Positions 4,303 through 45,095 of a stretch of 59,885 bases of DNA are shown here, one piece after another. The DNA lies in IMG/VR virus record IMGVR_UViG_3300017970_000002, positions 1-59,885 of that record; one strand, given 5' to 3'. The translations under genes and the position numbers were made by a program. Position 1 is the stretch's first letter, and the number at the start of each line of letters is the position of its first letter. Under the pieces are notes generated by a model. The model saw nothing but the letters and a program-made list of their open reading frames with translations, was not told where the DNA came from and did no database searches. Origin of the DNA: a virus. Lineage: Duplodnaviria > Caudoviricetes.

Positions 4303-5439
4303 CTAGGCTGTCTTTGCCGTAGGCGTATCCGGCTGGCCCATGGGAATTCCCTTGGCGCGCCGGTCCAGATAACTGTGAGCGGCCTTTTCAAAGCGACGCT
4401 CACGGCCCATGGCAGAATCGGTTGAGGGCGGCAATTTGCCGTTGTCCGCGTATCGATCCTGACCATTAGCAGCGGCTGCGATTGCGTCTTTCTCAGCAGG
4501 AGTTTTCATATCCCGCTTGAAAATAAGCGACCCTTCGCGCGACTGCTGCCCACCTGGTTGATTACCTCCGTTCAGAGCGGCTTCGGTGGCTTTCTGCCGG
4601 TATTCGCCTTCCAACTCCCCACGGATCTTGCTGGTGAGCTGCTCCGTGCGGATCTCTTCGCGGCGCTTGGGAACCTCGAACGTGCGCTCCCAAATCGTAC
4701 GGAGATCCTGAGTCGGTCGCCCTTGGCGGCCTAACTGGGCATTGGTTTCTAGCGCCTTCGCGAGGAGAGCGTTCCGTCCACGTAGGACGTTGCCCTCAGC
4801 ATCAGTAAACTCGAAGCTGCGAAGGGACTTACCGAAGAGTTCCTGATGTTCCTCGGCAATATCCGGGAACTCGGCCAGGAGACGAAGCATCTGGCGATCG
4901 CGTTGCGTCGCGAGCTTCATAATGTCCTCTTCGGTCATGTACTTAGGCTGATTGCCGTTACCGTTACCATTCGCCGGTTGCGATGACGGTGATCCGTTCC
5001 CGTTGCCAGATCCAGCGGCGGGTGTCGCAATCCCTTCGAAAAGGGACGCTTCGTCCGCGCCGTAGGTGGCCGCGAGAGTTTTCATCCGAGCGCGATACTG
5101 GCCTTCGGTAATGCGCGCGGCTTCAAGATCGGCGACGATTTTGTTGTACTTCTCGTCGAGACCCTGCTTCCACGTGGCCAGGTTCTGGCGCTCGGTGAGC
5201 ACCGACTGCACATCGTTATCGAGCGAACGCCTCTGGTCCGCGAGTTCCATCGTCTTCCGCGAATAGTCGCCTCGCATCAGAACGCCGTCACGTACGCGGG
5301 CAGAGACTTTCTCTTTACCGAGGATCGTTTGCAGGTTATTGATCTCGTCCTGCGAGAGTGCGCCGTCAGCGGCGATGCTGGCGACCCACTGGCGAAGGTC
5401 GAAATCGTCTTGGGCTTGCTGGTTATTGCCTGTTGGCAT
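4303..5439 (-). CDS. Scaffolding protein
   Basis: Coiled-coil with 'DYSRKTMELA' motif typical of scaffolds; upstream of MCP. Confidence 0.75.
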   Translation of the reverse strand: MPTGNNQQAQDDFDLRQWVASIAADGALSQDEINNLQTILGKEKVSARVRDGVLMRGDYSRKTMELADQRRSLDNDVQSVLTERQNLATWKQGLDEKYNKIVADLEAARITEGQYRARMKTLAATYGADEASLFEGIATPAAGSGNGNGSPSSQPANGNGNGNQPKYMTEEDIMKLATQRDRQMLRLLAEFPDIAEEHQELFGKSLRSFEFTDAEGNVLRGRNALLAKALETNAQLGRQGRPTQDLRTIWERTFEVPKRREEIRTEQLTSKIRGELEGEYRQKATEAALNGGNQPGGQQSREGSLIFKRDMKTPAEKDAIAAAANGQDRYADNGKLPPSTDSAMGRERRFEKAAHSYLDRRAKGIPMGQPDTPTAKTA

Positions 5440-5535
5440 GGTTAGCTCCGTCCGATTGCTCGGATTGTGGATTGGTCTCGCAACGGGAGTTATCACTCAC
5501 GCGAATGGCTCCTTGCTGCGGCTGGAAACTTATGG

Positions 5536-15875: not shown

Positions 15876-16283
15876 TCAGTGCGGACGCCGTGGTTCACGC
15901 GCGTTATATCCAGGGACGTACTCCTCGATCTTATGCCACTCGACGCCATTGACCTTGGCGAGGTAGGCCATTTTGAGTGCGTGCTGGCGAAGCGGCACGT
16001 ACCGACCGATCTCCCACGAGCGGATGGTGTTCTCTTTCAGACCAAGCTGCTCGGCGAACTTGGTCTGGGTCATGTGGAGGGCGCCTTTACGAAGCGCGCG
16101 GATGTCATCGCCGGACGGCGGGTAGTAGACCGGCTTGCGCCGCAGCATCTTGTCGCGAAGGGTTTTGACGCGTTTGCGGCGGGCGGCGACGCGTTTGACT
16201 CGCTTTCGCTCAGTGGCCTTATAGATGTCCCATTTGTAGGCCTCAGATAGCTCAGCATCCACGTCATCCACGAGCCACAGCAT
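15876..16283 (-). CDS. XRE-family HTH transcriptional regulator
   Basis: 'IRALR..MTQTKFAEQLGLKENTIRSWEIGRYVP'. Confidence 0.9.
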   Translation of the reverse strand: MLWLVDDVDAELSEAYKWDIYKATERKRVKRVAARRKRVKTLRDKMLRRKPVYYPPSGDDIRALRKGALHMTQTKFAEQLGLKENTIRSWEIGRYVPLRQHALKMAYLAKVNGVEWHKIEEYVPGYNAREPRRPH

Positions 16284-16308
16284 AGCTCACCGTACCGCAG
16301 TGAGTCAA
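16279..16308 (-). promoter_or_regulatory. Leftward promoter
   Basis: TTGACT-N18-TATGCT. Confidence 0.5.
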
Positions 16309-16321
16309 GACCAAAATTTTG

Positions 16322-16350
16322 TTGCAATCAGGTTGCGGCGGGTGTATATT
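16322..16350 (+). promoter_or_regulatory. Rightward promoter for helicase gene
   Basis: TTGCAA-N17-TATATT. Confidence 0.65.
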
Positions 16351-16356
16351 CGCTCG

Positions 16357-16462
16357 GTCGGCTATCCCCCGGCGTTCTGACTCTGCGGCCCGGACCTACC
16401 TTTTTGCCGGGCCATTTTCTTGGTCAGCGTTTAGAAGGGAATAGCCAGACTGGGGATACGAC
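16357..16462 (+). promoter_or_regulatory. Structured, switchable 5' leader
   Basis: Nested stems GGCTAT/ATAGCC, CTGAC/GTCAG, GGCCCGG/CCGGGCC; alternative anti-SD TATCCCC pairs GGGGATA. Confidence 0.65.
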
Positions 16463-17377
16463 ATGGGAACGACCGCCGACCGTGACATCATTGAGGGAAT
16501 ACTTCCACGTGACCGGCTGCATTTAATTGCGGGGCCATCGGGAGTCGGCAAGAGCACGCTGATCTTCCAGATGGTCGAGGCGATCAGGGCAGGCACGCCA
16601 TTCTTTGGGTTCCCGGCCACGCCAGTACCGATTCTCTACATCACCGCCGACCGCACGCGTAAGGAGCACGAGGAGACCTGCGTGAGAGTTGGGGTCGATT
16701 TCGCAGGCATCAAGGTCGTGACGATGGGCGACTACCTGAGCCTGCCATTGCTGGTAGAGATCCTCGACAAGCATGCACACAAAGACTATCTAGTTATCGT
16801 AGAGCCACTTCCGTTCTTTATTGTAGACGCATTGAACCGGCCCGGGAACATAAACGACAACACTCAGGTGTCCAGGTTTCTGTCGATGCTGAAGGTGCGT
16901 TGTGAGAAAGAAAAGTACACAATGCTCGGCAGTTGCCACGCTCCTAAATCCAAAGAGGGCAACAACTACCAGATGATGCGCGAACGGATCGCCGGTACCA
17001 ATGCATGGGGCGCATACACAGCGACGAACATCTGCCTAGAGTTACAAGATCCCAGTGATGTAGCGAGCCCATTCCGGGCGATCCATTTCATCCTCAGAAA
17101 CACCAAGAGCTTCTCTAAGCAGTTCCAGTTCACCGATACGGGAAGGCTGGAGATTTGCCAACCCGGTAAGTCGAATGCATGGGCTGCTCTTGACAAAGAA
17201 CTCAACAACTGGCCCCCGGATCAAACGATTACTACCGATGACCTGGAGATGTGGAGTGGGTTGGTAAACTGCTCCCGCAAGACGCTTTACCGCTGGGTAG
17301 ACGCCAAGATCATGGAGGTCGAGATGATGAGGATCGACCGAGGCTTGTACAAGAAGCTGAACCGGGCGGCAAACTGA
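16463..17377 (+). CDS. RepA-like AAA_25 (SF4-like) helicase with C-terminal HTH
   Basis: 'GPSGVGKS', 'H..K', 'RIAGTNAW'; C-terminal 'CSRKTLYRW..GLY'. Confidence 0.85.
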   Translation: MGTTADRDIIEGILPRDRLHLIAGPSGVGKSTLIFQMVEAIRAGTPFFGFPATPVPILYITADRTRKEHEETCVRVGVDFAGIKVVTMGDYLSLPLLVEILDKHAHKDYLVIVEPLPFFIVDALNRPGNINDNTQVSRFLSMLKVRCEKEKYTMLGSCHAPKSKEGNNYQMMRERIAGTNAWGAYTATNICLELQDPSDVASPFRAIHFILRNTKSFSKQFQFTDTGRLEICQPGKSNAWAALDKELNNWPPDQTITTDDLEMWSGLVNCSRKTLYRWVDAKIMEVEMMRIDRGLYKKLNRAAN

Positions 17378-17683
17378 CACAAGCCAGCATTCCTTTAATT
17401 TCAACGACTTAGCCTACCCCCTTATTGTCTCTGTGTATTCGTGACACAAGCAGGTTAACTCCTTGCTAATCATGCATATGCATTTGTGTCACCCTTTTTG
17501 GATGACACTGACACAAGTGACATATTACCCGACTCGTGTCACTTGTGTCATCCTCTTTCTCTCTCTCATGACACTATATATATATATATATATAAAGGAG
17601 TTAAGTAGGTTTGTGTCACGTTTTCCCCGGTGTACATAGGCAAAAGCTAAGTCATTGAAAACACGTGGCTGTGATTTGTGTCA
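17375..17683. other. Putative replication origin (iterons + AT-rich unwinding element)
   Basis: About 10 TGACAC(AA) copies in both orientations; 14-bp perfect IR 17509-17522/17537-17550; (TA)10 at 17575-17594. Confidence 0.8.
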
Positions 17684-18178
17684 ACTGAAAATAAATAATA
17701 GGCCGAGAGACCAAGCCGCACTCACCGCCCCCTCCTCCCCCCTCCCCTTGGACAATCGACGGCGGAATATGTGGCATTCGGGCGGGTTGGGCGGGTGCGA
17801 GATTACCGAGCGCTGGGGACCTGGGCACTGGTGGCCACACTACCTTATATGCGCATGGGCGGATGGGACCTAGGTCCGGCGCCCACCAGGGGTCGAATTC
17901 GGCGCGCGGACAATGGGACGCGATGGGCCAATGGGACAAGCTGGGCGGCCGACTACGTGTGTACGTACCTGCGCGCCTCGCACTCAACGTACCTGCGCCT
18001 GTGTGTAGCCCACTTGTGCCACGTGGCGCGCGTGCTGGCCAGATGGCTAGCCCCTTTTGTGTGTCCTGCTCACCCTTACGGGTGTGACCAGTGCGCGACG
18101 AAGTGTACGGTAACGTTACCGGACAGGGTATGAGGGATTTTTACGGTTACGCTCACTGCGAAACAGTGAGAATAGATG

Positions 18179-18207
18179 TTGACAGCGGATTGGGAGTGGG
18201 GCATACT
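18179..18207 (+). promoter_or_regulatory. Early promoter
   Basis: TTGACA-N17-CATACT upstream of GAGGAG SD. Confidence 0.7.
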
Positions 18208-20695: not shown

Positions 20696-20898
20696 CCGAG
20701 ATCCAAATCCGGCGTGCTTGCAAAAAGCCAAAGCCTCGTTCAAGTAATCAGCTAGGCCACTTCAAGGCCATAGAGTGCCCCGACTGTGGCGCACCTGCTT
20801 ATGAAGGCAATAAGATACAACACGTACGCGTGTATGAATGGGTACCGCTCACATCTCTGGCTAAGCTGACGGCGGGGAAAGGTGAGGTGGAGGGATGA
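20692..20898 (+). CDS. Small CxxC protein
   Basis: Coupled ORF. Confidence 0.55.
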   Translation: MTEIQIRRACKKPKPRSSNQLGHFKAIECPDCGAPAYEGNKIQHVRVYEWVPLTSLAKLTAGKGEVEG

Positions 20899-21650
20899 GC
20901 GAACTCACGATCGCGATCACATGTTATAAGCGCCCGGAGCTGCTCAAAGGGTTGCTGGAGTCGATTGCGCAAGCTGATCTGACACATGTCGTGCGGTTCG
21001 TCGTAAGTGTAGACTGGCACTCGGATGAGATGTTCATGCGCATGTGCGACGTGTTTAGGCAGTCAGTCGGGGACCTCGGCGCGCGTGGTTGCCGTTTGTG
21101 CAAACAGGCGTATCGGCTCGGTATACATAACCACAATCGCTGGTTGATAAATGAAGCCTTCAACGCGCATAAGGCCGAGGCCGTGGTCATGTTGGAGGAG
21201 GACTGCGTAGTCGCGCCTGATGCGTTAAACTTTGCGTGGTGGGCGTTGCAGCAGAATGGCGCGATCGTAAACCTAGGTGGCAAATGGTCCGATGGCGTCA
21301 GACATGCCGTACGTGGTACGCACCTTATCGAATCCGCAGGCTGGGCGGTCACTCGCGAGAACTGGCAACAGATCGAGCCTTACTGGAATGGCAAGATGCG
21401 CATGCCTGTCGGCTGGGACTGGTCACTCTCGTACCTCTGCTACGTGCGCGGATGGGACACAATCGATCCACTAGTCGCGCGAGTGAAGAACGTCGGTCGA
21501 ACGAATGGTACGTATCAGACAGCAGCGGATTATGACCTGGATCGCGCGAATGTCGTACTGGCGACCGGGATACCGAAGGAGTACACGCTGCTGGAGGGCG
21601 AACCGGATCGGACTTGGCCTGAGTGGGTGAAAGAGGAGGCACGGCTGTGA
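20895..21650 (+). CDS. GT-A fold glycosyltransferase (GT2/GT13-like)
   Basis: 'ITCYKRPE', 'VSVD', 'MLEEDC', 'GWA', 'GWDW', 'RVKNVG'. Confidence 0.85.
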   Translation: MSELTIAITCYKRPELLKGLLESIAQADLTHVVRFVVSVDWHSDEMFMRMCDVFRQSVGDLGARGCRLCKQAYRLGIHNHNRWLINEAFNAHKAEAVVMLEEDCVVAPDALNFAWWALQQNGAIVNLGGKWSDGVRHAVRGTHLIESAGWAVTRENWQQIEPYWNGKMRMPVGWDWSLSYLCYVRGWDTIDPLVARVKNVGRTNGTYQTAADYDLDRANVVLATGIPKEYTLLEGEPDRTWPEWVKEEARL

Positions 21651-22384
21651 AACTTGTTGTGCTGTCCTCGTGCTATCAACGTCCAGATCTCCTCGCGACA
21701 CTCGCCGAGTCCTGCCAGCTATTCAGGCATGATCTGATCCTGGTCGAAAAGCCCGGAGCCGCATGGACCAACTGCCGCGAAGGGAAACTCATCGCCGCGC
21801 GCGACAAGCTGAAGGAGCTGGCGACGGCTGGTGTCTATACGCACGCGCTGTGGACCGATGGCTTTGACTCGTTCATGTGCCAGCCACTACATGCGATTGC
21901 ACGTGAGCACGCTGCGATGGGTAGCCCAGAGATCATCCTGTCAGCCGAGAAGAACTGCTTTCCTGACGCCACACTAGCCAAGCTCTACCCACTGCAAGAC
22001 TCGCCTTGGGAGTTCGTATGCGCTGGCGGCTGGCTGGTCGAGATATCAGCGCGCGTCTGTGGTGTCTTCGATCAACTCTGCGCTGAGGAGTCGCCGGAAG
22101 ATCAGCTTACCTGGGCGCGCGCGTATGTCAATGGATTCGTCGGCGGAATGGCAACGCTCGATGTAGGATGCAGGATATTCCAGACGATGTGGGGGACCTC
22201 GGAGTTCGACGAGGTGACCGTTACGCCAAAAATCAACGGTGATGTGGTGAATCACGTCACGGGAAGTCATCCTTGCGTCATTCACTTCAATGGCTCAGGC
22301 CCAGATCATCCGACTCAGCGTTATTTGAGCATGTGGCAGCGTTTGTGGTTCGCAAAGCAGCTTCCAGGATCACTGCAAGCATGA
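21647..22384 (+). CDS. Glycosyltransferase resembling the PLOD/LH3 GT domain
   Basis: 'WTDGFD', 'SAEKNCFP', 'AGGW', 'DQL', 'LD..CRIFQT', 'P.VIHFNG'. Confidence 0.85.
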   Translation: MKLVVLSSCYQRPDLLATLAESCQLFRHDLILVEKPGAAWTNCREGKLIAARDKLKELATAGVYTHALWTDGFDSFMCQPLHAIAREHAAMGSPEIILSAEKNCFPDATLAKLYPLQDSPWEFVCAGGWLVEISARVCGVFDQLCAEESPEDQLTWARAYVNGFVGGMATLDVGCRIFQTMWGTSEFDEVTVTPKINGDVVNHVTGSHPCVIHFNGSGPDHPTQRYLSMWQRLWFAKQLPGSLQA

Positions 22385-25384: not shown

Positions 25385-25577
25385 GGAAGTCATCATGGCG
25401 CGTAAGATGACGTTGGAATTGACAATCGGCGAAATTACCGCCATCGAAGCGGGGATGGTGGTGTTGCGCGCCTCTGGAGAATCAGACCCTGCAATGGAGT
25501 CCGTTCTTCTTAAGGTGCGTGAAGCCATTAAGGCCGATGCAATGGATTACAAGGCGGAAAAGCGGAGGCCCTGCTGA
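25368..25577 (+). CDS. Hypothetical protein
   Basis: Coupled ORF. Confidence 0.55.
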   Translation: MPSTPEEVIMARKMTLELTIGEITAIEAGMVVLRASGESDPAMESVLLKVREAIKADAMDYKAEKRRPC

Positions 25578-26956
25578 TGCCATCGACGCTTGGTGACCTC
25601 CAAACTTTCGTGGCCCAGTCCGAGGCAGCGGGCAAGCGTGTGTTCTTCACCTCGCGTTCAGCGATCATCACGCGGCAGAAGTGCCCACGCCTGCGCTGGT
25701 TGCGCCATCACTTCGACGGGCGCGGCCTGACCAAGATCCGGCTGAACATTCCGATGACGACCGGGACGTATACGCACTTGGGTGCCAAGCTCCTGCTCAC
25801 AGGAACCGCGCCGCTCGCCGCCGCTGAGCAAGTCTTGGCAGCCTACGACGAGGAAGTCCTGAAGCGCGGCCTCGACATCGAGGCGTCCGAGAATCTGGAG
25901 TTCGTGGCGAATGAGCAGCGCGCACTCTGCGAGGCGTTCGTGTGGCTGATGCACCTGCGCGTGCTGCCGGAGCTGCTGCGGGACTACGAGGTCGTCGCGG
26001 TCGAGCAGGATGACTGGTTCCTGCTGTATGAGGACGCGCAGATGGTGGTTATTGTTGAGACCAGAGGGGACGCCATTTTGCGGGAGAGTGGCGTCATTCA
26101 GCCGGAGTCTATGCAATTGGGTCCAGACGGGATGAAGCACATTGGTTCAGACCTACCTGGAACTGGTGATCTCTACATCCTCTCCTGGAAAACCGCCAAG
26201 CAATGGGACAAGCGCAAGCTCCGCGACGCTCGCGTGGACATGCAAGGCCTCTCCGAAGCCTACTCGGCCGAGTTGCGTATGAACGCGCCAGTCCTCGGCG
26301 TCAAGATGATCCATCTCCTCAAGGGCAAGCGCTACGAGGACGACTACCGCCCTGGAACCTGGATCACCCGCTCGCCACTCATTCGCCCGTGGTACAACGA
26401 ATCCGGCCCAACACCCGAGTTCGCCTGGTCCTACGAATGGTCAAATCCCGAGGAGATCAACGATCGCACGGGCCGCGCTGTAAAACATCGCCTGGGCAAA
26501 GGCTGGCGCCCGGCATTCATCCCCGACATCATGCCGATGCGCGAGTGGATGGAGATGCTCCACGAGAAGGCGGTGCAGCCCGAGGCCGGGGATTGCCTGG
26601 CCAAGCAGTACGTGACCCCGATGCCCGAGACGCGCAGTGACGAGACGAAACGGCGCTGGTTAAGGCAGATCACCGGACAGGAGATCGAAGTCGCCCAGCA
26701 ATTGGTCGCGTTCGATGGCGTCACGAAACAAGGTGACGAATCTGCTACCGAGGAAGCCCTAGACCTGATGTTCCCGCAGTACACACATTCGTGCACATAC
26801 CCGTCCGAATGCGAGATGTTCCAGATCTGTCATGGGAATGAGGATGCACAGGAGGAAGCTGAGGTCGCTGGCGAGCCGGTCGTGAATCCGTTGAGTCTGT
26901 ATAAGCCGCGAGACCCGCATCACGTTGGTGAGATGGGGCAGTTTGAGGAGGAGTGA
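25577..26956 (+). CDS. PD-(D/E)XK exonuclease (Cas4/RecB-like)
   Basis: N-terminal CPR, 'G..TH', 'RGDA', 'SWKT', C-terminal Cys cluster. Confidence 0.8.
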   Translation: MPSTLGDLQTFVAQSEAAGKRVFFTSRSAIITRQKCPRLRWLRHHFDGRGLTKIRLNIPMTTGTYTHLGAKLLLTGTAPLAAAEQVLAAYDEEVLKRGLDIEASENLEFVANEQRALCEAFVWLMHLRVLPELLRDYEVVAVEQDDWFLLYEDAQMVVIVETRGDAILRESGVIQPESMQLGPDGMKHIGSDLPGTGDLYILSWKTAKQWDKRKLRDARVDMQGLSEAYSAELRMNAPVLGVKMIHLLKGKRYEDDYRPGTWITRSPLIRPWYNESGPTPEFAWSYEWSNPEEINDRTGRAVKHRLGKGWRPAFIPDIMPMREWMEMLHEKAVQPEAGDCLAKQYVTPMPETRSDETKRRWLRQITGQEIEVAQQLVAFDGVTKQGDESATEEALDLMFPQYTHSCTYPSECEMFQICHGNEDAQEEAEVAGEPVVNPLSLYKPRDPHHVGEMGQFEEE

Positions 26957-28673: not shown

Positions 28674-29303
28674 ATGCCAGACGTAGATACGATCGACATA
28701 AACGACCCAGCATTACAGCAGGAGATGGTGGAGGCTGATCCGGAAGCAAATTTCTTCGAGGCGCCGCCGCCGCCGCCAGACGATCGGGAGTATGAAGTGC
28801 GCATCGTGTGTGAGGAAGCGCCGAAGATTGCAAGGCAGGCTAAGAAGGGCGAGCAGAAGGGCAAAGGAACCGGGCCGTTGTACGCCAACTTCTCACTGAC
28901 ACTGCGCATCGTGGCACCGAACGAGCCATGGGACAACCAGCCGGTGTTCGACAAAGCGACGAGCATGGTCATGGAAAATTCAGGCACGAGCAGGCTGCAC
29001 TCGATCCTGCGCGCGGTGCGGGCACCAGCCTTGGGTAGGATGACGCTGCGCGAGCTGATCGACCACGCGACGAATGTGTTCGCGACCGAGCCGACTGCGT
29101 TCATCGAGGGTGAGTGGGAATCGAGCATCGAGGCTCCGGGGAACAAGCGCGCGGATAAGGGTGGGTACGTGCGCGCCCGGCGTGGTATGCAGAACTTTGT
29201 GAAAGACGACACGAAGCCTAGCGGTTACAACCACGTGTGGGATGATCCCGAGCTTGGGCCTGCGCCTGCGAAGTTTCGTGTTACCAACTACATCATTCGG
29301 TAG
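28674..29303 (+). CDS. ssDNA-binding protein-like (DUF669-type)
   Basis: 'PPPP....Y.V.I' start; follows Sak4. Confidence 0.55.
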   Translation: MPDVDTIDINDPALQQEMVEADPEANFFEAPPPPPDDREYEVRIVCEEAPKIARQAKKGEQKGKGTGPLYANFSLTLRIVAPNEPWDNQPVFDKATSMVMENSGTSRLHSILRAVRAPALGRMTLRELIDHATNVFATEPTAFIEGEWESSIEAPGNKRADKGGYVRARRGMQNFVKDDTKPSGYNHVWDDPELGPAPAKFRVTNYIIR

Positions 29304-29540
29304 AGTTTGCCGCCCGAGTCCGGTAGGTCCGGGTCCCGTAGTCAGTCACTGGTTGACGGCGGGCGGTATGAATTGGCGGCCAAGTTGTGCAGGTAAGGTC
29401 GGGTGGGTCTAGCTCGAAAGAGGGCCATGTCATCCCGGCGCCGCCAAATAGATCCTGGGGACGGCGAGCTAGAAGTGGACCTGCGAGGGCTGCTGACTGG
29501 GCGATGACCCGTCCCTGGGTGATTTACGACTAGGTGGATT
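29304..29540 (+). ncRNA. Candidate multi-hairpin antisense/regulatory RNA
   Basis: Three closing stems (29308-16/29360-68; 29373-80/29440-47; 29454-64/29509-19); complementary to helicase and MCP leaders. Confidence 0.65.
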
Positions 29541-29542
29541 GA

Positions 29543-29773
29543 ATGCCACGACGATCAAGTGAAGGTGCCAAGATTCTGCGGTTCTTCGACACGGAGCCGC
29601 TCGACAAGGTTCGGTTCGTATTCGACATGGTGCGGGATGTGGTCGCAGCGCGGGTCAAGGCTGCGAATCCGCAGCCGATCAAGAAGGCAGCCACGCGGCG
29701 CAAGAAGCCGAACGCGAACCTGCCGCAGGCCACGGCTGAGCAGAAGGCCGCAACGAGTCCCGAGGCTGACTGA
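29543..29773 (+). CDS. Small basic protein
   Basis: ORF with SD. Confidence 0.65.
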   Translation: MPRRSSEGAKILRFFDTEPLDKVRFVFDMVRDVVAARVKAANPQPIKKAATRRKKPNANLPQATAEQKAATSPEAD

Positions 29774-31317: not shown

Positions 31318-31529
31318 ATGAGCACCTAGAGGTAAGACTCGTGGAGGCGCTGGAGAGCATCGCGTCATCGTTCGCGAAGATTGCCTATGTAATCAACAGC
31401 GAGAGCATACGCTTATTCGTGAGCTTTGGTGATGGCGCCAACGAGGATGCGCCATTCTGTGTAGAAGCGAACCTGTACACCGGCGAGCATACGCGGCCTG
31501 TTAAGGTGGCCAAGGACATCATCAAATGA
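31314..31529 (+). CDS. Hypothetical protein
   Basis: Coupled ORF. Confidence 0.6.
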   Translation: MNEHLEVRLVEALESIASSFAKIAYVINSESIRLFVSFGDGANEDAPFCVEANLYTGEHTRPVKVAKDIIK

Positions 31530-32974
31530 ACAGTCAGCCTAGGATCGCATTCTGCACGACCTGCAAAGGCCGCGCGCAACACGTCGAGGAGACGCTGCCG
31601 AAGAACCTGCTCGACAACTGCGGATATCAGAACGCCGTGTTCATTATCCTCGATTACAACTCGCAGGATCACCTGCTGGAGTTCGTGAAGACGCGGCATT
31701 CCAAGGCACTCAGCAGCTGGCGACTGGTTGTCTATAGCTACCGCGTGGACACTTCATTCCACTTGTCCCACGCGAAGAACATGGCGGCCCGGCTCGGTAT
31801 CCTCGAAGGCGCCGATATCCTCGTGACCATGGATGCCGACAACTTCACTGGCCCAGGATTCGCCCAATTCATTGCCGAGAAGTTCAAAGCCGCGCCACAG
31901 ACGCAGCCAGGGATGTTCCTGTCGCCCAACTTCCCGCTGATCCATTCCCTCCCCTACGGCCCGAGCCGCCCGCTGCGGGGCTTCGCCGGGCGCCTCGCAA
32001 TCCGCGCGCAGGACTTCGTGAAGATGGGCGGCTATGACGAGACCTTCGATACCTGGCGTGGCGAAGACATCGACATGATCTCGCGGCTTGAGAAGGTGGG
32101 ATACCGTGCGCAATTCATTGATAACAGCTATCTTATCGTCATCCCTCACAACGCCGCCGTCCGCTTCAAGGAGTACCCACACGCGCGGGAGTTGTTTGAG
32201 AATAAAGGTCAACTGAAGGTCATCGACAAGCGCACTGTAACGGTCGTCAATTACGGGCGCTGGGGCGTTGGCACTGTGTACAACAGCTTCACGAACAAGG
32301 AGGTTAAGCTGCTCCCATTACCTACGCGCATCTTCGGAATCGGACTACACAAGACCGGCACGACTTCGCTCGATGCTGCATTCAAGATCCTTGGGTACGA
32401 TAGTTTGCATTGGGGCACCGGCGAGGCTCCTAAGATCTGGAATGAGATGCACTCGACCGGTCACTCGAAGACGCTTGAAGCCTGGTACGCGTTCTCGGAT
32501 CTCCCTATCCCAGTGCTCTACCGCGAGCTGGATAAGGCATACCCTGGATCGAAGTTCATCCTCACGATTCGCAATGAGCAGGCTTGGGTCAAGAGTGTCG
32601 AGAAGCTCTGGGACCCGAGGTACAACCCAACCCGTTGGATGTGGGACGTTTACCCATTCAGCAACCGGGTGCACAAAGCACTCTACGGGCGCGAGGATTT
32701 CGATCGAGACACGTTTCTTGCGCGATACCGCAGGCACAATCAAGAGGTCCAGGGGTACTTCAAGAGTCGGCCAGATGACCTATACGTCATGGACATTGAC
32801 AAGGAAGACAAGTGGCCGGGATTATGCGCTTTCCTCGGTGTCCCTGAGCCATCTGTTCCGTATCCGGCCAGTAACGTAACAACCAAAGCGCCGGTTGAAG
32901 TTCCAGCGGCGCGCATGGCATGTCAGCAGCACATCGTGAAAAGCATGCAGGGCGTGTACGGAGATGGCATATGA
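31526..32974 (+). CDS. GT2/GT7C glycosyltransferase fused to sulfotransferase-family domain
   Basis: 'DYNSQD', 'DAD', 'GGYDE.F..W.GED.D'; then PAPS-binding 'GIGLHKTGTTSL' and 'KFILTIR...W..S'. Confidence 0.88.
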   Translation: MNSQPRIAFCTTCKGRAQHVEETLPKNLLDNCGYQNAVFIILDYNSQDHLLEFVKTRHSKALSSWRLVVYSYRVDTSFHLSHAKNMAARLGILEGADILVTMDADNFTGPGFAQFIAEKFKAAPQTQPGMFLSPNFPLIHSLPYGPSRPLRGFAGRLAIRAQDFVKMGGYDETFDTWRGEDIDMISRLEKVGYRAQFIDNSYLIVIPHNAAVRFKEYPHARELFENKGQLKVIDKRTVTVVNYGRWGVGTVYNSFTNKEVKLLPLPTRIFGIGLHKTGTTSLDAAFKILGYDSLHWGTGEAPKIWNEMHSTGHSKTLEAWYAFSDLPIPVLYRELDKAYPGSKFILTIRNEQAWVKSVEKLWDPRYNPTRWMWDVYPFSNRVHKALYGREDFDRDTFLARYRRHNQEVQGYFKSRPDDLYVMDIDKEDKWPGLCAFLGVPEPSVPYPASNVTTKAPVEVPAARMACQQHIVKSMQGVYGDGI

Positions 32975-33243: not shown

Positions 33244-33428
33244 CGCCGAAGCGTTACCTACTCGTATACAATCCTGGACTCATCAGCGCGGCTGATATTG
33301 GCAAAGCGCAGGAAGCTCTTGTTGAGGCAAGTGTCCAACTTATTCCACTCCCCCTCGATCCCAACTCTGGTAAGTCGGCCTATAAGCTGATCGATCTCGA
33401 CAACGTAGAGAAGAACTTCTCGGAATGA
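33240..33428 (+). CDS. Hypothetical protein
   Basis: Coupled ORF. Confidence 0.55.
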   Translation: MTPKRYLLVYNPGLISAADIGKAQEALVEASVQLIPLPLDPNSGKSAYKLIDLDNVEKNFSE

Positions 33429-36340
33429 AATCCATCCCAGGCTACCCACTCGATCAAGACGTTCGTATCATTGAGCCATCCGGTACTGGCTCCCTGCGCG
33501 TTCTGGCCATGGGCGAGGCTGGTGGTCGTCACGAAGCGCGTCTCGGTCACCCGTTCGTCAAGCACGCTGAAGCCGGGTCAGTGCTCGAACGCGCGCTGCG
33601 CTTTGCTGGGATTGATCGCGACCAGCTCACCATCACGAATGCAGTCTGGTGGCAACCCCCTAACGACTACCTCGATGGCGCCTGGTACGAGCACAAAGCC
33701 ATCAGCATGTGCCGCGAGTGGAATGATGCGCTGATCGAGGAGCGCCAGCCGAAGTGTCTCCTAGCCCTAGGCGGCATCCCAATGCGCGAACTGAGCGGCA
33801 TGTCGGGCTACCGGGAGGGGATTCTCATGCTACGTGGCTACCCGATCAAGTCGCCGCGTTATGGCATCCCCGTCCTCGGTACTTACCACCCGTCCTATCT
33901 GCGGCGCGGCGAGAAGCAGGAGTCCGAGGAAGGCGCAGACGTAGAGTCAGCAGCCGGACGTGGCATGGATCTCATGGGCGTGCTCATCCACGATATCCAG
34001 TACGCTGTGAAGCTCGCGCGGGATGGGATGCCAGTGCGCCCGGAGCCTCCGCGTCATGTCCTATTCGGCACGCACGAGACCTTGCTGCGGTTCTACGAGG
34101 ACGCCCTCGCGCACCCGGAGCTGCCGATCGCATGGGACATCGAAACCGACCAGTTACTGGCGGCTGAGGACGAGAGCGAAATGGAGCGCTTAGTCCTGAC
34201 CGACGCCGTGACTCAGATCCAGTTCAGCCTGCGCCCGTCCGATGCATGCGTGTTCCGCTGGACCGATGACTTAGCCGACCTCGTGGTCAAGCTCATGCGC
34301 CTGCCTAACCCGAAGCTCGACTTCAACGGCAGATTGAGTGACCGCCCGATCCTGCGCCAGTTCCTTCGCGACAAGGGCCACGAAATCCGTTACTGCGGCG
34401 ACAACCACGATCTGATGGACATGTGGCACCATGCGCAGCCGGATTACCCCAAGGGCTTGCAGCATGTGACGAGTTACTTCGCCAGTTTCCTCGGGCCGTG
34501 GAAGCACTTGAACATCGCGGATCGTGGGTTGTATGGCGCACTCGACGCCGAGAGCCTGCAATGGATCTACAGGAAGTTGCCGGGGGATCTCAGGAAGCTC
34601 GGGATCTGGGATGGGTACGAGCGGCACGTGCTGAAGCTGTCACGCACGCTGGATAAGGTGACGGCGATTGGTATCCCGATCAATGATGAGAAGCGCGTCG
34701 AGTTTGGCAAGGATCTGGATATCGAGAAAGCCGCACTCGAACGGGAATTGCAGAAGCTCGTGCCTGAGGATATCAGGCCGGTACATCCGAAGGAGGGTTG
34801 GAAGAAACTGCCGGGTGCCGTCAAAGCCGACCTGCTTACGTGGAACCTGTATCACAACCCGCAGTCGTGTTTGATGGCACTGGACGCGCTGCCGGATCGT
34901 ATCGAGACAGCCATAGGCACCGTGTACGTCCGTCGCGAATTTGGCGAGATCGACCAGACCGCAATCTGCGAGAACCGCGTGTGCCGCTGGTGCCGACTCG
35001 AACCATTCAACCCGAATTCGCCCGATCAGATCAAGCTGTACATCGAGTTCAAACGCAAGGAGGAAATCGATGCGCTCATCCGGAAAGGATGGGACCGCAA
35101 AAGGGCCGAAGCCAAAGCGAAGTACAAGGTCCCGCGCAACTTCAAAACGGATAAGGAGACCACGGGCAAACGAGAGCTGCTACGACTTGCGAAAGCCACT
35201 GGAGATCAGCTTTTTCCCAGTACCGTCCACATACGTGAATTTGGGAAGCTCAAAGGTACATACGTTGACGGTTGGGCGCCTACTGATGATAAGAGGGCGC
35301 ATTCAACTTTCGGATTTGCCCCAGCCACTTCTCAGTTGTCTAGCGAAAATCCAAACAGCCAAAACGTCCCGAGTGAGAAGTCAAGAGGGGCTGCGATTTC
35401 TCCAACTATTGTTAAGCTGGCTGAGAGGTTCAGAGGGATTATCGAAGCCCCAAGTGGCTTCACTCTCATTGAGTTCGATTGGAGAGCTTTCCACGCCCTA
35501 ATGCTCGGCTTCGTCGCGCAGGACCCGACCTACATGCGCCTCGCGCGCCTCGATATCCACTCCTACTTCGCCGCGTGTGGTATCCTCAAGATCGCGAATG
35601 GTGACAAGCTGCTTGTGATGCCAGACGCCGAGCTAGCCTCCTACCTCGCATGGGTCAAGAAGACGCACCCCGTGGTCCGCGACGGCCAAGCGAAACCCGC
35701 GATCCTCGGCTACGGTCTCGGGATGCGCGGCTATACGCTCTGGCAGCACAACCTAGAATCGTTCTCGGGCCGCGTCGAAGCCGACCGCGTGCTCGACCAG
35801 CTCGATGGCGAGTTCCCGGTGACCGCCAAATTCCGCCGCGCTGCGCTAGAGGAAGCGAATTATGGCAACGAGCATCACGGGCCGAACTGCCTCGTCCTCA
35901 AGCCCTGGTCGATCCGGCGCTTCTGGTCAGTCTACGAGAACAAGCCCGTGACCGATGCCTACCGGCCCAAGAAGGGCGAGAAGGTCTTCGTAGACTCACA
36001 GAAGCAGTACTGGAAGGTAGGCCACGGGTCCGACGCCGAAGCCGCGATCTCCTTCTACGTGCAGAATTCAGCGCACGGCCACATGAAGGAGAACATGCTG
36101 GCGATCGACGACGCGGGCTGGCTCGAACGCTATGGTATGTGCAACACGGTGCATGACGCGTTCTGGTTCTGCTGCCCGAAGGAACTGGCCGAGGAGTGCT
36201 ACGTGAACGTGAAACCGCAGATGGAGGCACCATCGACCGTGCTCAAGAATCCGGTGATGCCCGAGGGGTTCTGGTGCGCTGTGGATGCGACGATTGGGCC
36301 GACGATGAGATCAGCCGACCGGCGGAAGTTCCGTGTCTAG
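33425..36340 (+). CDS. polA: DNA polymerase A with N-terminal family-4 uracil-DNA glycosylase domain and 3'-5' exonuclease
   Basis: UDG 'GEAGG', 'TN', 'YHPSY'; exo 'DIET', 'Y...D'; pol 'SSENPNSQN', 'EFDW', 'R...AK', 'VHD'. Confidence 0.93.
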   Translation: MKSIPGYPLDQDVRIIEPSGTGSLRVLAMGEAGGRHEARLGHPFVKHAEAGSVLERALRFAGIDRDQLTITNAVWWQPPNDYLDGAWYEHKAISMCREWNDALIEERQPKCLLALGGIPMRELSGMSGYREGILMLRGYPIKSPRYGIPVLGTYHPSYLRRGEKQESEEGADVESAAGRGMDLMGVLIHDIQYAVKLARDGMPVRPEPPRHVLFGTHETLLRFYEDALAHPELPIAWDIETDQLLAAEDESEMERLVLTDAVTQIQFSLRPSDACVFRWTDDLADLVVKLMRLPNPKLDFNGRLSDRPILRQFLRDKGHEIRYCGDNHDLMDMWHHAQPDYPKGLQHVTSYFASFLGPWKHLNIADRGLYGALDAESLQWIYRKLPGDLRKLGIWDGYERHVLKLSRTLDKVTAIGIPINDEKRVEFGKDLDIEKAALERELQKLVPEDIRPVHPKEGWKKLPGAVKADLLTWNLYHNPQSCLMALDALPDRIETAIGTVYVRREFGEIDQTAICENRVCRWCRLEPFNPNSPDQIKLYIEFKRKEEIDALIRKGWDRKRAEAKAKYKVPRNFKTDKETTGKRELLRLAKATGDQLFPSTVHIREFGKLKGTYVDGWAPTDDKRAHSTFGFAPATSQLSSENPNSQNVPSEKSRGAAISPTIVKLAERFRGIIEAPSGFTLIEFDWRAFHALMLGFVAQDPTYMRLARLDIHSYFAACGILKIANGDKLLVMPDAELASYLAWVKKTHPVVRDGQAKPAILGYGLGMRGYTLWQHNLESFSGRVEADRVLDQLDGEFPVTAKFRRAALEEANYGNEHHGPNCLVLKPWSIRRFWSVYENKPVTDAYRPKKGEKVFVDSQKQYWKVGHGSDAEAAISFYVQNSAHGHMKENMLAIDDAGWLERYGMCNTVHDAFWFCCPKELAEECYVNVKPQMEAPSTVLKNPVMPEGFWCAVDATIGPTMRSADRRKFRV

Positions 36341-43688: not shown

Positions 43689-45095
43689 CTAACTCCCTGT
43701 ATTCTCGCACGTTTCCACGTGGCTGATCGATGGAACAATCGTTGGACATGTAACCGGCGTAGGCACTGGCGGAATCGGTTGTGTCTCGACGATCAGCGTC
43801 AGTTTACCCTGCTTCTGAGCCGCTGTGGCATCGAACTGCACGGCGACCTCAACTTCCAACGAGCCTTCCTTTTGAGCTGCCGTCGCATCAAATGTCTTGC
43901 CTGAGCCAACGAGGGTTGCTGATAATACTCCAGCCTTCTGTGCTGCTACAGCGTGAATCGTATCAAACACTTCAATGGCCAGCGCACCGGCGCGTTGCAA
44001 CATCTGCGCCGCAAGCTGCTTGGTCTTGGTTATCGAAACGGTGAGCACTCCCTGCTTCTCGGCGGCGGTTGCATCGAATGCTGTAGCAACCGCCCGATTA
44101 AGTGCCCCTTGCTTCGTGCTCGCTGTAGCGTCAAGCTGCGTAAAGACTTTGCGACCGAGCGTTGCCGACTTCGTGTGCGCTGTCGCTGTCAAGTCCGCTG
44201 TAATTACGAATGACTTCGTGACAAGGAGTCGGCGCTTCGGTAGGACCAGCCCGTACGGGTAATTCGACAGCTCCGCGATCTCGTCGCCACCGAGCGCGCG
44301 CTTCCAGATCGCAAACATCTGCGCGGTGCCTTGGCAGTAGCGCGAATCCGAGTAGTTCGGCGTGTACATGAAACGCGCGACTGTCGCTGTGTTTGTGACG
44401 CTCCACGAGCTGGCCGACCCGTAGAGCATTCCGTTCATCCAGATCTGTTGAATCGAGCGCTTCGTTGACGCCACGCAGAAGATGATGACGTAGCTGCCGT
44501 GCAACTTGGCTTGGCCTTCATTGCCAGCCGTGATGCTGTCCAGTGCTGTATAAGATCCTGACGGCGAACCCTCGGGGAAGAACGATGGGTACCCGAAGTA
44601 CACACCCTCGCCAGTGCCCGCCACGTACATGCCGAATCCATTCGATGACCCATCGCCGATCGCCATGACCGTCGAGTACCCGCCTGAGACGCCTGGCTGC
44701 GAGGCCGAGAACCCGACGATCGCCATCATCGTGAACTCGCCCATCGAGAAGCTGAGATTTGAGAGCGTGCCCACGTACTGGGAATCGGCATTCAGGCAGA
44801 CGAGACCAGAACCATCCGGGTCCCACGCCGGGGAGCCAGAGGTTGAGAAAGTAGACGGGACACCGGCGCCAGCCTGTGCCGCGATCTGATGGATCGTCGA
44901 GCCGATGCCTTCGTTCAATGGGATGAGCGCAACTAGGCCGGTCGCGGATGGATGCGCGGAATTGAATAGCGCATTAGGCCCTGGACGCCAGCCACCTGCG
45001 GATGGAGACGGCGTATCGGCTGGAGAAAGCCCCGGTACGTACCACTGCGGCGATCGCGGCGGATTTACACGCTGGAATACGAGCGGCCCAGGCAT
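43689..45095 (-). CDS. LamG/concanavalin-like fibre protein with ~22-aa repeats
   Basis: 'LNEG.G', 'WMNG', 'FAIWKRAL...EI..L...PY'; repeats 'FDATAAQKxGxL'. Confidence 0.75.
   Translation of the reverse strand: MPGPLVFQRVNPPRSPQWYVPGLSPADTPSPSAGGWRPGPNALFNSAHPSATGLVALIPLNEGIGSTIHQIAAQAGAGVPSTFSTSGSPAWDPDGSGLVCLNADSQYVGTLSNLSFSMGEFTMMAIVGFSASQPGVSGGYSTVMAIGDGSSNGFGMYVAGTGEGVYFGYPSFFPEGSPSGSYTALDSITAGNEGQAKLHGSYVIIFCVASTKRSIQQIWMNGMLYGSASSWSVTNTATVARFMYTPNYSDSRYCQGTAQMFAIWKRALGGDEIAELSNYPYGLVLPKRRLLVTKSFVITADLTATAHTKSATLGRKVFTQLDATASTKQGALNRAVATAFDATAAEKQGVLTVSITKTKQLAAQMLQRAGALAIEVFDTIHAVAAQKAGVLSATLVGSGKTFDATAAQKEGSLEVEVAVQFDATAAQKQGKLTLIVETQPIPPVPTPVTCPTIVPSISHVETCENTGS

Follow-up and report, generated by a model that had tools for sequence, protein, structure and literature searches.

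The closest phage precedents for the locus considered here are the antisense RNAs P1 c4 and P4 CI. RNAs of this type are discrete, stable processing products of about 70-80 nt. The c4 RNA comes from the P1 immI operon, which is also the operon under its control, and its targets are located a short distance downstream in the transcript from which it is cut. It is described as a trans-acting RNA that represses synthesis of the Ant proteins (PMC8546580). Our candidate shares with c4 the action of a phage RNA on a phage message by base pairing, but its two sites (denoted A and B) lie 12.9 kb apart in separately promoted units, and the message that would be targeted encodes a replication ATPase rather than an antirepressor. 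The CI RNA of P4 is described as being processed from an untranslated transcript and as bringing about premature termination by pairing with the sequences seqA and seqC (PMC4825925). Like CI, the candidate would be an antisense RNA exerting control over phage replication genes via transcription termination in a leader. However, CI promotes termination, is flanked by its two targets in the same leader, and belongs to a class described in Rfam, whereas the present locus features one target and no Rfam match, and the pairing would disrupt a terminator-like hairpin rather than favor one.

The replication control systems of plasmids provide a second comparison. Plasmid countertranscripts, such as CopA/CopT of R1, RNA I of ColE1, and those involved in pT181/pIP501 attenuation, are encoded in cis on the strand opposite the leader and are perfectly complementary to it, and systems of the pT181 type use an intrinsic terminator within the leader as the point of decision. 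The likeness here lies in the leader hairpin of a replication initiator gene with a loop that would serve as the first antisense contact. In contrast to the plasmid countertranscripts, the candidate is encoded 12.9 kb away on the same strand, its complementarity is imperfect, and the leader contains no antisense promoter-like site. A third comparison is with sRNAs derived from 3′ untranslated regions or operons (e.g., prophage DicF), which are cut from the end of a longer message, have no promoter of their own, and usually end at the intrinsic terminator of that message. Such an origin would fit the lack of promoter signals near site A, but the spacer in which site A is located has no terminator-like site.

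The window, by which we mean the whole stretch of DNA analyzed, corresponds to a complete virus record in IMG/VR; it is 59885 bp long, has a G+C content of 58%, and carries direct terminal repeats. Its sequence is present in four DNA runs from peat metagenomes, with no variants listed, and no RNA run containing it is listed. Screening of GenBank phages returned no match for either locus (blastn) or for the 459-aa and 209-aa proteins discussed below (tblastn), and no tRNA or tmRNA was found in the window. The phage belongs to a group of uncultured peat/soil phages, a lineage without a cultured relative. An initial annotation, made from the sequence of the window alone, had proposed that an RNA containing site A is produced from a recombination operon, pairs with site B in the leader of a replication gene, and thereby regulates translation in a manner conceptually similar to P1 c4 or P4 CI. 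The likeness to these two systems fails on those of their defining features that can be tested: the two sites are not part of a common operon, a single target takes the place of two, and no RNA family is matched. The features to which we refer are as follows.

15876-16283, minus strand: HTH_3 (cI/Cro-like) regulator gene, divergent from the ATPase gene (Pfam HTH_3, E = 1.6e-7; PHROG regulator families)
16322-16350, plus strand: sigma-70-like promoter, TTGCAA-17-TATATT (9/12), facing the ATPase gene, with a putative transcription start near 16357
16377-16400, plus strand: site B, comprising 10 nt upstream of the leader hairpin, the 5′ arm of the hairpin, and the first 7 bases of its loop
16387-16421, plus strand: leader hairpin GGCCCGG / 13-nt loop / CCGGGCC, followed by AUUUUCUU; predicted to be terminator-like
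16463-17377, plus strand: AAA_25 P-loop ATPase gene (RepA/DnaB-like; Pfam AAA_25, E = 2.9e-16; PHROG primase/helicase families)
17378-17770, no strand: origin-like non-coding region directly after the AAA_25 gene, containing multiple TTGTGTCA(C) units, oriented both ways, and a (TA)n tract at 17575-17598
18179-18207, plus strand: sigma-70-like promoter, TTGACA-17-CATACT (10/12), at the head of a long plus-strand gene block that contains site A
28674-29303, plus strand: 209-aa open reading frame, function unassigned, with site A in its 3′ flank
29304-29542, plus strand: non-coding spacer of 239 nt between the 209-aa and 76-aa open reading frames, with no credible open reading frame
29310-29367, plus strand: stem-loop CCGCCCG...CGGGCGG, -25.6 kcal/mol, enclosing site A and without a U-tract
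29322-29345, plus strand: site A, 24 nt, partly sequestered (opening cost 11.9 kcal/mol)
29543-29773, plus strand: conserved small open reading frame, 76 aa, following the spacer; homologous N-termini in G001, L013, and L024
30025-31317, plus strand: Dda/PIF1-like SF1 helicase gene (PHROG 325, E = 1.3e-52; Pfam PIF1 and AAA_30)

Genomic context of the two sites

Site B is located in the 179-bp divergent region that separates the HTH_3 gene (minus strand) from the AAA_25 gene (plus strand). The HTH_3 regulator has a homolog in a related phage genome, G001, that is 42% identical over 62 aa, and the AAA_25 ATPase, which the initial annotation had termed a helicase, has a weak RecA P-loop match in PDB. 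Site B would lie 20-43 nt downstream of the putative start of the ATPase transcript. At the same place, G001 has TTGTAA-17-TATGCT (8/12), which is below the threshold of the tool and was read by eye. On the minus strand, no antisense promoter-like site was detected within 16357-16462, the nearest such sites being 16308→16279, which lies leftward of the leader, and 16874→16847 (9/12), which falls within the ATPase gene.

The stem-loop of the leader hairpin (16387-16413) has 7 bp, all of them G-C, with a folding energy of -15.0 kcal/mol, and 5 of the next 8 nt are U. The motif ACCUACC sits in the 13-nt loop, as the initial annotation had recognized, and is predicted to be free (opening cost 0.3 kcal/mol). 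The size of this loop is outside the range of a standard terminator scan, and a looser scan for hairpins followed by U residues detected 4 such sites in the window as compared to 1-9 in 10 shuffles. Because hairpin-plus-U sites are therefore not enriched over shuffles, the hairpin can be regarded only provisionally as a terminator. Site B ends 52 nt before GGGGA (16452-16456), which is read as the ribosome-binding site.

The leader of the orthologous ATPase gene in G001 also features a hairpin, in this case with 8 bp, one bulge, and a 16-nt loop, followed by U6 (L005, about 1398-1446). Between the promoter-like site and the ATPase start, both phages therefore have a U-run preceded by a GC-rich hairpin whose loop is unusually large (13 and 16 nt), in sequences that are not alignable. 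Whether or not the antisense pairing is real, this hairpin may represent a leader attenuator that has been conserved. Beyond the ATPase gene of the window, copies of TTGTGTCA(C) were identified at 17442, 17484, 17509, 17543, 17611, and 17676, among others, and the origin-like region contains a perfect 14-nt inverted pair (17509-17522/17537-17550). The same position in G001 (L005, about 2400-2790) is AT-rich and has different repeats of its own.

Site A starts 19 nt past the stop codon of the 209-aa open reading frame, homologs of which (40-54% identity) were identified in G001, L013, L015, L017, L022, L024, and L026. The spacer as a whole folds no more stably than shuffled sequences (z = -0.10). 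No sigma-70-like promoter or terminator bracketing an RNA at 29322 was called on the plus strand. Searches of Rfam 15 yielded no match at the gathering score across the whole window; at E ≤ 10, there were no hits in 29250-29600, and the only hit in 16250-16500 was a chance snoRNA match (E = 9.2).

The designation of the genes preceding site A as a recombination operon is unverified, since the upstream proteins have no Pfam match (459, 392, and 209 aa) and no PDB sequence match (459 and 392 aa). Conservation of the 459-aa protein (25577-26956) extends to 21 metagenome loci. Its C-terminal region contains a cluster of cysteines in which C406, C412, and C418 are invariant between the window and G001; this cluster may resemble that of Cas4/RecB-type iron-sulfur nucleases. 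A 971-aa protein combines a uracil-DNA-glycosylase-superfamily domain and a family A DNA polymerase domain in one chain, and its gene block also includes two glycosyltransferase-like genes and a glycosyltransferase-sulfotransferase fusion (coordinates 33425-36340, 20895-22384, and 31526-32974). This set of glycosyltransferase and glycosylase-polymerase genes may be involved in DNA or surface modification.

Complementarity of sites A and B and its chance level

Site A has the sequence GGTAGGTCCGGGTCCCGTAGTCAG and site B has the sequence CTGACTCTGCGGCCCGGACCTACC, both exactly as originally read. Of the 24 positions of A, 20 match the reverse complement of B, or 22 when G-U pairs are counted, since two of the four DNA mismatches in the 24-mer would be G-U pairs in RNA. 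The duplex comprises 12 contiguous pairs, a 6-nt core (2 Watson-Crick pairs, 2 G-U pairs, and 2 mismatches), and 6 further Watson-Crick pairs, and both sites are non-coding. On all of these points, the initial annotation was accurate. The near-palindrome CCGGG/CCCGG forms the core of both stems, and part of the match comes free because both stems are built around it. The 12-mer shared by A and B has 2 exact copies in the window and 5 hits with at most 2 mismatches, as compared to 4.75 expected, indicating no near copies beyond chance.

RNAduplex predicts 22 pairs between A and B at -38.9 kcal/mol, against which opening costs of 10.2 and 11.9 kcal/mol must be set. The resulting net gain of about -17 kcal/mol makes the pairing physically feasible. 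When the leader and the spacer were cofolded, the gain was -13.3 kcal/mol as compared to a shuffle mean of -7.4 (sd 3.5; P = 0.06, 150 shuffles). This gain was matched by 4 of 248 plus-strand tiles, the best of which (-16.8) is the tile containing A. A seeded RNAduplex scan was uninformative, with values of -60 to -74 kcal/mol for many windows, and was replaced by measures of run length, ungapped score, and cofold gain. The initial annotation had presented the ATPase leader as the target of the RNA, but a structure-aware ranking of targets did not single it out: among the 5′ regions of 78 predicted genes, it ranked 25th, 32nd, or 8th for queries that included different lengths of the A region.

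To evaluate how often such a match arises by chance, long-range inverted pairs were counted that contained an exact seed of 12 nt and matched at 20 or more of 24 positions, with dinucleotide shuffles as the control. The window contains 4 such pairs as compared to an average of 1.29 in the shuffles, and one or more pairs occurred in 71 of 100 shuffles. A repeat search yielded 106 inverted pairs, and in the length-ordered list of the best 25 of these 106, A/B is entry I16 (24 nt, 83%). Pairs ahead of it include those of 27 nt at 85%, 26 nt at 85%, and 25 nt at 88%, and entry I20 (18 nt) is 100% complementary. The longer pair of 27 nt at 85% (2112-2138/17759-17785) has 16 contiguous pairs, and its second arm is located at the end of the origin-like region.

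The best complement of the 112-nt leader anywhere in the genome is site A (ungapped score 50; runners-up 44, 43, 43, and 43), and a score of at least 50 for the leader was reached in 26.5% of 200 shuffled genomes. From the side of A, B is the clear best complement in the window (50 vs. 39). A fair correction for the fact that both sites are non-coding is to consider only the intergenic regions, of which there are 31 with a total of 4181 nt. Among the 465 pairs of these regions, A/B ranks first; its score was reached in 19% of 120 shuffles and its 12-nt run in 33%. Tests on this one leader and this one spacer gave P = 0.0057 and P = 0.0013, and these tests are post hoc. The A/B match is not beyond chance within its own genome, and such a match is expected by chance in a 60-kb genome with 58% GC.

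Complementarity at the same two places in a related phage

IMG/VR was searched with the 209-aa protein and with a two-sequence alignment of the 459-aa protein, and the only relatives identified were G001 (59849 bp) and G002. These two genomes share 99.996% identity and therefore count as a single independent relative with both loci. The AAA_25 protein alone, when used as a query, retrieved nothing from IMG/VR. G001 is syntenic with the window, with protein identities of 38-57%, and its spacers are not alignable with those of the window. A metagenome scan yielded 21 loci, mostly short, among which the spacer was reached only in L013/L017 (one type) and L024; the leader locus was reached in none besides G001. 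The four spacers available (window, G001, L013, and L024) are 153-306 nt in length and align with a mean column identity of 43% and 14 invariant columns. No conserved RNA was detected in this alignment, and the sequence of A is neither conserved nor alignable in G001, L013, or L024. Among contigs of prokaryote genomes, the nuclease-like protein had no match, and relatives of the helicase had at most 31% full-length identity (one 51-residue fragment, 38%). The more distant genomes G003-G007 (helicase 39-44% identical) do not encode the 209-aa protein, and G003 and G004 also have no AAA_25 match; the AAA_25 leaders of G005-G007, the only distant genomes to have one, revealed nothing interpretable.

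In G001, the sequence GGGGCCGGGAG, which starts 21 nt past the stop codon of a 206-aa gene orthologous to the 209-aa gene, is an 11-nt perfect complement of CTCCCGGCCCC. The latter spans the 3′ arm of the leader hairpin together with the three loop bases that precede it. The pair in G001 is therefore found at the same two places as A and B but has a different sequence, and its 11-mer has just two exact copies, in inverted orientation, in the genome.

The significance of this second pair depends on the statistic that is used. The longest exact run between spacer and leader had P = 0.014 (1500 shuffles) and the cofold gain of -17.2 kcal/mol had P = 0.01 (100 shuffles), whereas the ungapped score had P = 0.31. 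With respect to cofold gain, the spacer tile ranked 6th among 193 plus-strand tiles. Runs of at least 11 nt were identified in 5 of 351 intergenic pairs and for 3 of 26 intergenic partners of the leader region, and an equal or better score was reached by 28 of the 351 pairs. As a target, the leader ranked 19th, 32nd, and 24th of 73. The leader of the window, when cofolded with the non-cognate spacer of G001, gained -15.0 kcal/mol, which is as much as the cognate pairs.

Further tests were restricted by position. When the 55 nt past the stop codon were compared to the 49-nt hairpin region in G001, an 11-mer was found in 41 of 40000 shuffles. We also compared the 55 nt after the stop codon of each gene to the leader hairpin region. 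In the window, only the 209-aa gene stands out among 77 genes (12 vs. 8 for the next best), and in G001 only its ortholog does so among 75 genes (11 vs. 8). When flanks from five genomes were pooled (383-384 flanks), one non-orthologous flank reached at least 11. The small P-values of the position-restricted tests overstate the case, because these tests were framed after the match had been seen.

The check for covariation in relatives, for which G001 was the only genome available, thus revealed a different 11-nt complement at the same places, with P-values ranging from 41/40000 to 0.31 by statistic. A single relative can yield a covariation signal that is suggestive, not decisive. G001 also contains a 16-nt exact inverted match between positions 468-483, probably in a coding region near the start of the record, and 44572-44587, in the G001 spacer; this is another long complement at chance level.

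Explanations for the paired sites

The reading that we prefer, to which we assign a probability of about one in two, is that the complementarity of A and B is a coincidence between two independent GC-rich stem-loops. Every genome has a best intergenic complement, and the prior for that complement being functional is low for this reason. Under the reading of coincidence, the hairpin at site B and its U-rich tail would act locally in the ATPase leader, which would begin at the promoter-like site (16322-16350) and extend as far as the start codon (16463), either as an attenuator or terminator or as a stabilizing structure at the 5′ end. The stem-loop at site A would likewise act locally, as a 3′ structure of the message of the 209-aa gene, and a functional link between A and B would be absent. 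The replicate in G001 raises the prior substantially, but it depends on one relative, and the statistics conflict. In its present form, the finding mainly illustrates how easily a complement of 24 nt, with 12 contiguous pairs, arises by chance between two intergenic hairpins.

A real link between RNAs is a tentative alternative, to which we give roughly half the credence of coincidence. It holds that the 3′ untranslated stretch of the 209-aa gene pairs with the terminator-like hairpin of the ATPase leader, with site A acting either while still part of the long message or after being processed into a fragment. In the window, the pairing would involve the 5′ arm and loop, and in G001 the 3′ arm, and either pairing would open the hairpin. 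Several observations argue for such a link, including a duplex of 22 pairs with a net gain of about -17 kcal/mol, a free ACCUACC loop, and two mismatches that are G-U pairs in RNA. The A/B pairing also forms part of the intermolecular helix in the cofolds of both phages. The complement is kept in G001 with a different sequence (P = 0.014, 0.01, and 41/40000; 5 of 351 intergenic pairs), in each genome the 3′ flank of the orthologous gene alone is an outlier, and both sites belong to plus-strand units with separate promoter-like sites at 16322 and 18179. However, all in-genome statistics are at chance level, and in G001 the ungapped score (P = 0.31), the tile rank (6/193), the number of leader partners (3/26), and the target rank (19th-32nd of 73) are not significant. 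A non-cognate pair is as good as a cognate one, no transcription signals define an RNA, and there is one independent relative. Co-transcriptional invasion of a hairpin arm in trans would, moreover, be kinetically demanding.

If the RNA link is real, its likeliest effect would be altered read-through or stability of the ATPase message, as opposed to occlusion of the ribosome-binding site, because the target shared by the two phages is a terminator-like hairpin and not a ribosome-binding site. Translational control is therefore the weakest part of the interpretation put forward in the initial annotation. The consequence of the RNA link would be that expression of the replication initiator is coupled to transcription of the downstream block of replication genes. 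In its most specific form, which we consider slightly more doubtful than the link itself, a co-evolving RNA element located after the 209-aa gene acts in trans to open the terminator-like hairpin of the ATPase leader, such that transcription of the replication/repair block sets the level of the initiator. The co-evolving duplexes would then be those of 12-24 nt on the 5′ arm and loop here and of 11 nt on the 3′ arm in G001, an assignment that is just as doubtful. If true, this would be a rare case of phage control of a replication initiator by an RNA encoded far off in another operon. The RNA would act on a leader terminator in the anti-terminating direction and would represent a trans-encoded counterpart of plasmid and P4-type antisense control.

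An inverted repeat in DNA equally describes a repeated protein site, and A and B might be inverted copies of one double-stranded site for a phage protein, such as the neighboring HTH regulator, although we consider this unlikely. The site would have diverged between the window and G001 along with the specificity of the protein. The location of B, which adjoins the HTH gene and lies 20-43 nt past the putative ATPase start, is consistent with a role of this kind, as is the presence in G001 of exactly two inverted copies of its own 11-mer. However, each genome has two copies only, neither promoter has a second copy nearby, the 24-mer lacks dyad symmetry, there is no promoter-like site near A to control, and the same chance-level statistics apply. 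A nut-like arrangement, in which B transcribed leftward and A transcribed rightward carry one RNA motif bound by one RNA-binding factor, is highly improbable: the hairpins at B (minus strand) and A (plus strand) do have UAGGU in the loop beside a CCGGG arm, but the leftward promoter-like sites lie left of B in the window (16308→16279) and left of the hairpin (near L005 1400-1440) in G001 (L005 1268→1239 and 1319→1292), and leftward transcripts would for this reason not contain B.

Two further candidates were set aside. Inversion sites for a recombinase were dropped on reasoning alone, as no recombinase was detected in the scans that were run and inversion would flip the replication genes. The shared motif GGTA(A)GGTC(C)GGG (window 29322, 29392, and 16400 on the minus strand; G001 44724) was considered as a binding site or promoter element and rejected; a -10-like TAAGGT/TAAGAT has a convincing -35 in L013 only, and matches across genomes are approximately at chance. 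No complement to this motif was identified in G001, and the helicase loci L035-L040 have neither the small open reading frame nor the motif. A form of it, (A)GGTA(A)GGTC(G)GG, recurs in the spacer ahead of the small open reading frame in the window (29392-29404), L002 (3864-3881), L013 (about 5349-5362), and L024 (about 5444-5455). This form is similar to site A and to site B as read on the minus strand, with cross-matches near chance level. The copy in G001 just precedes a terminator-like hairpin and T6 (L002 3891-3903).
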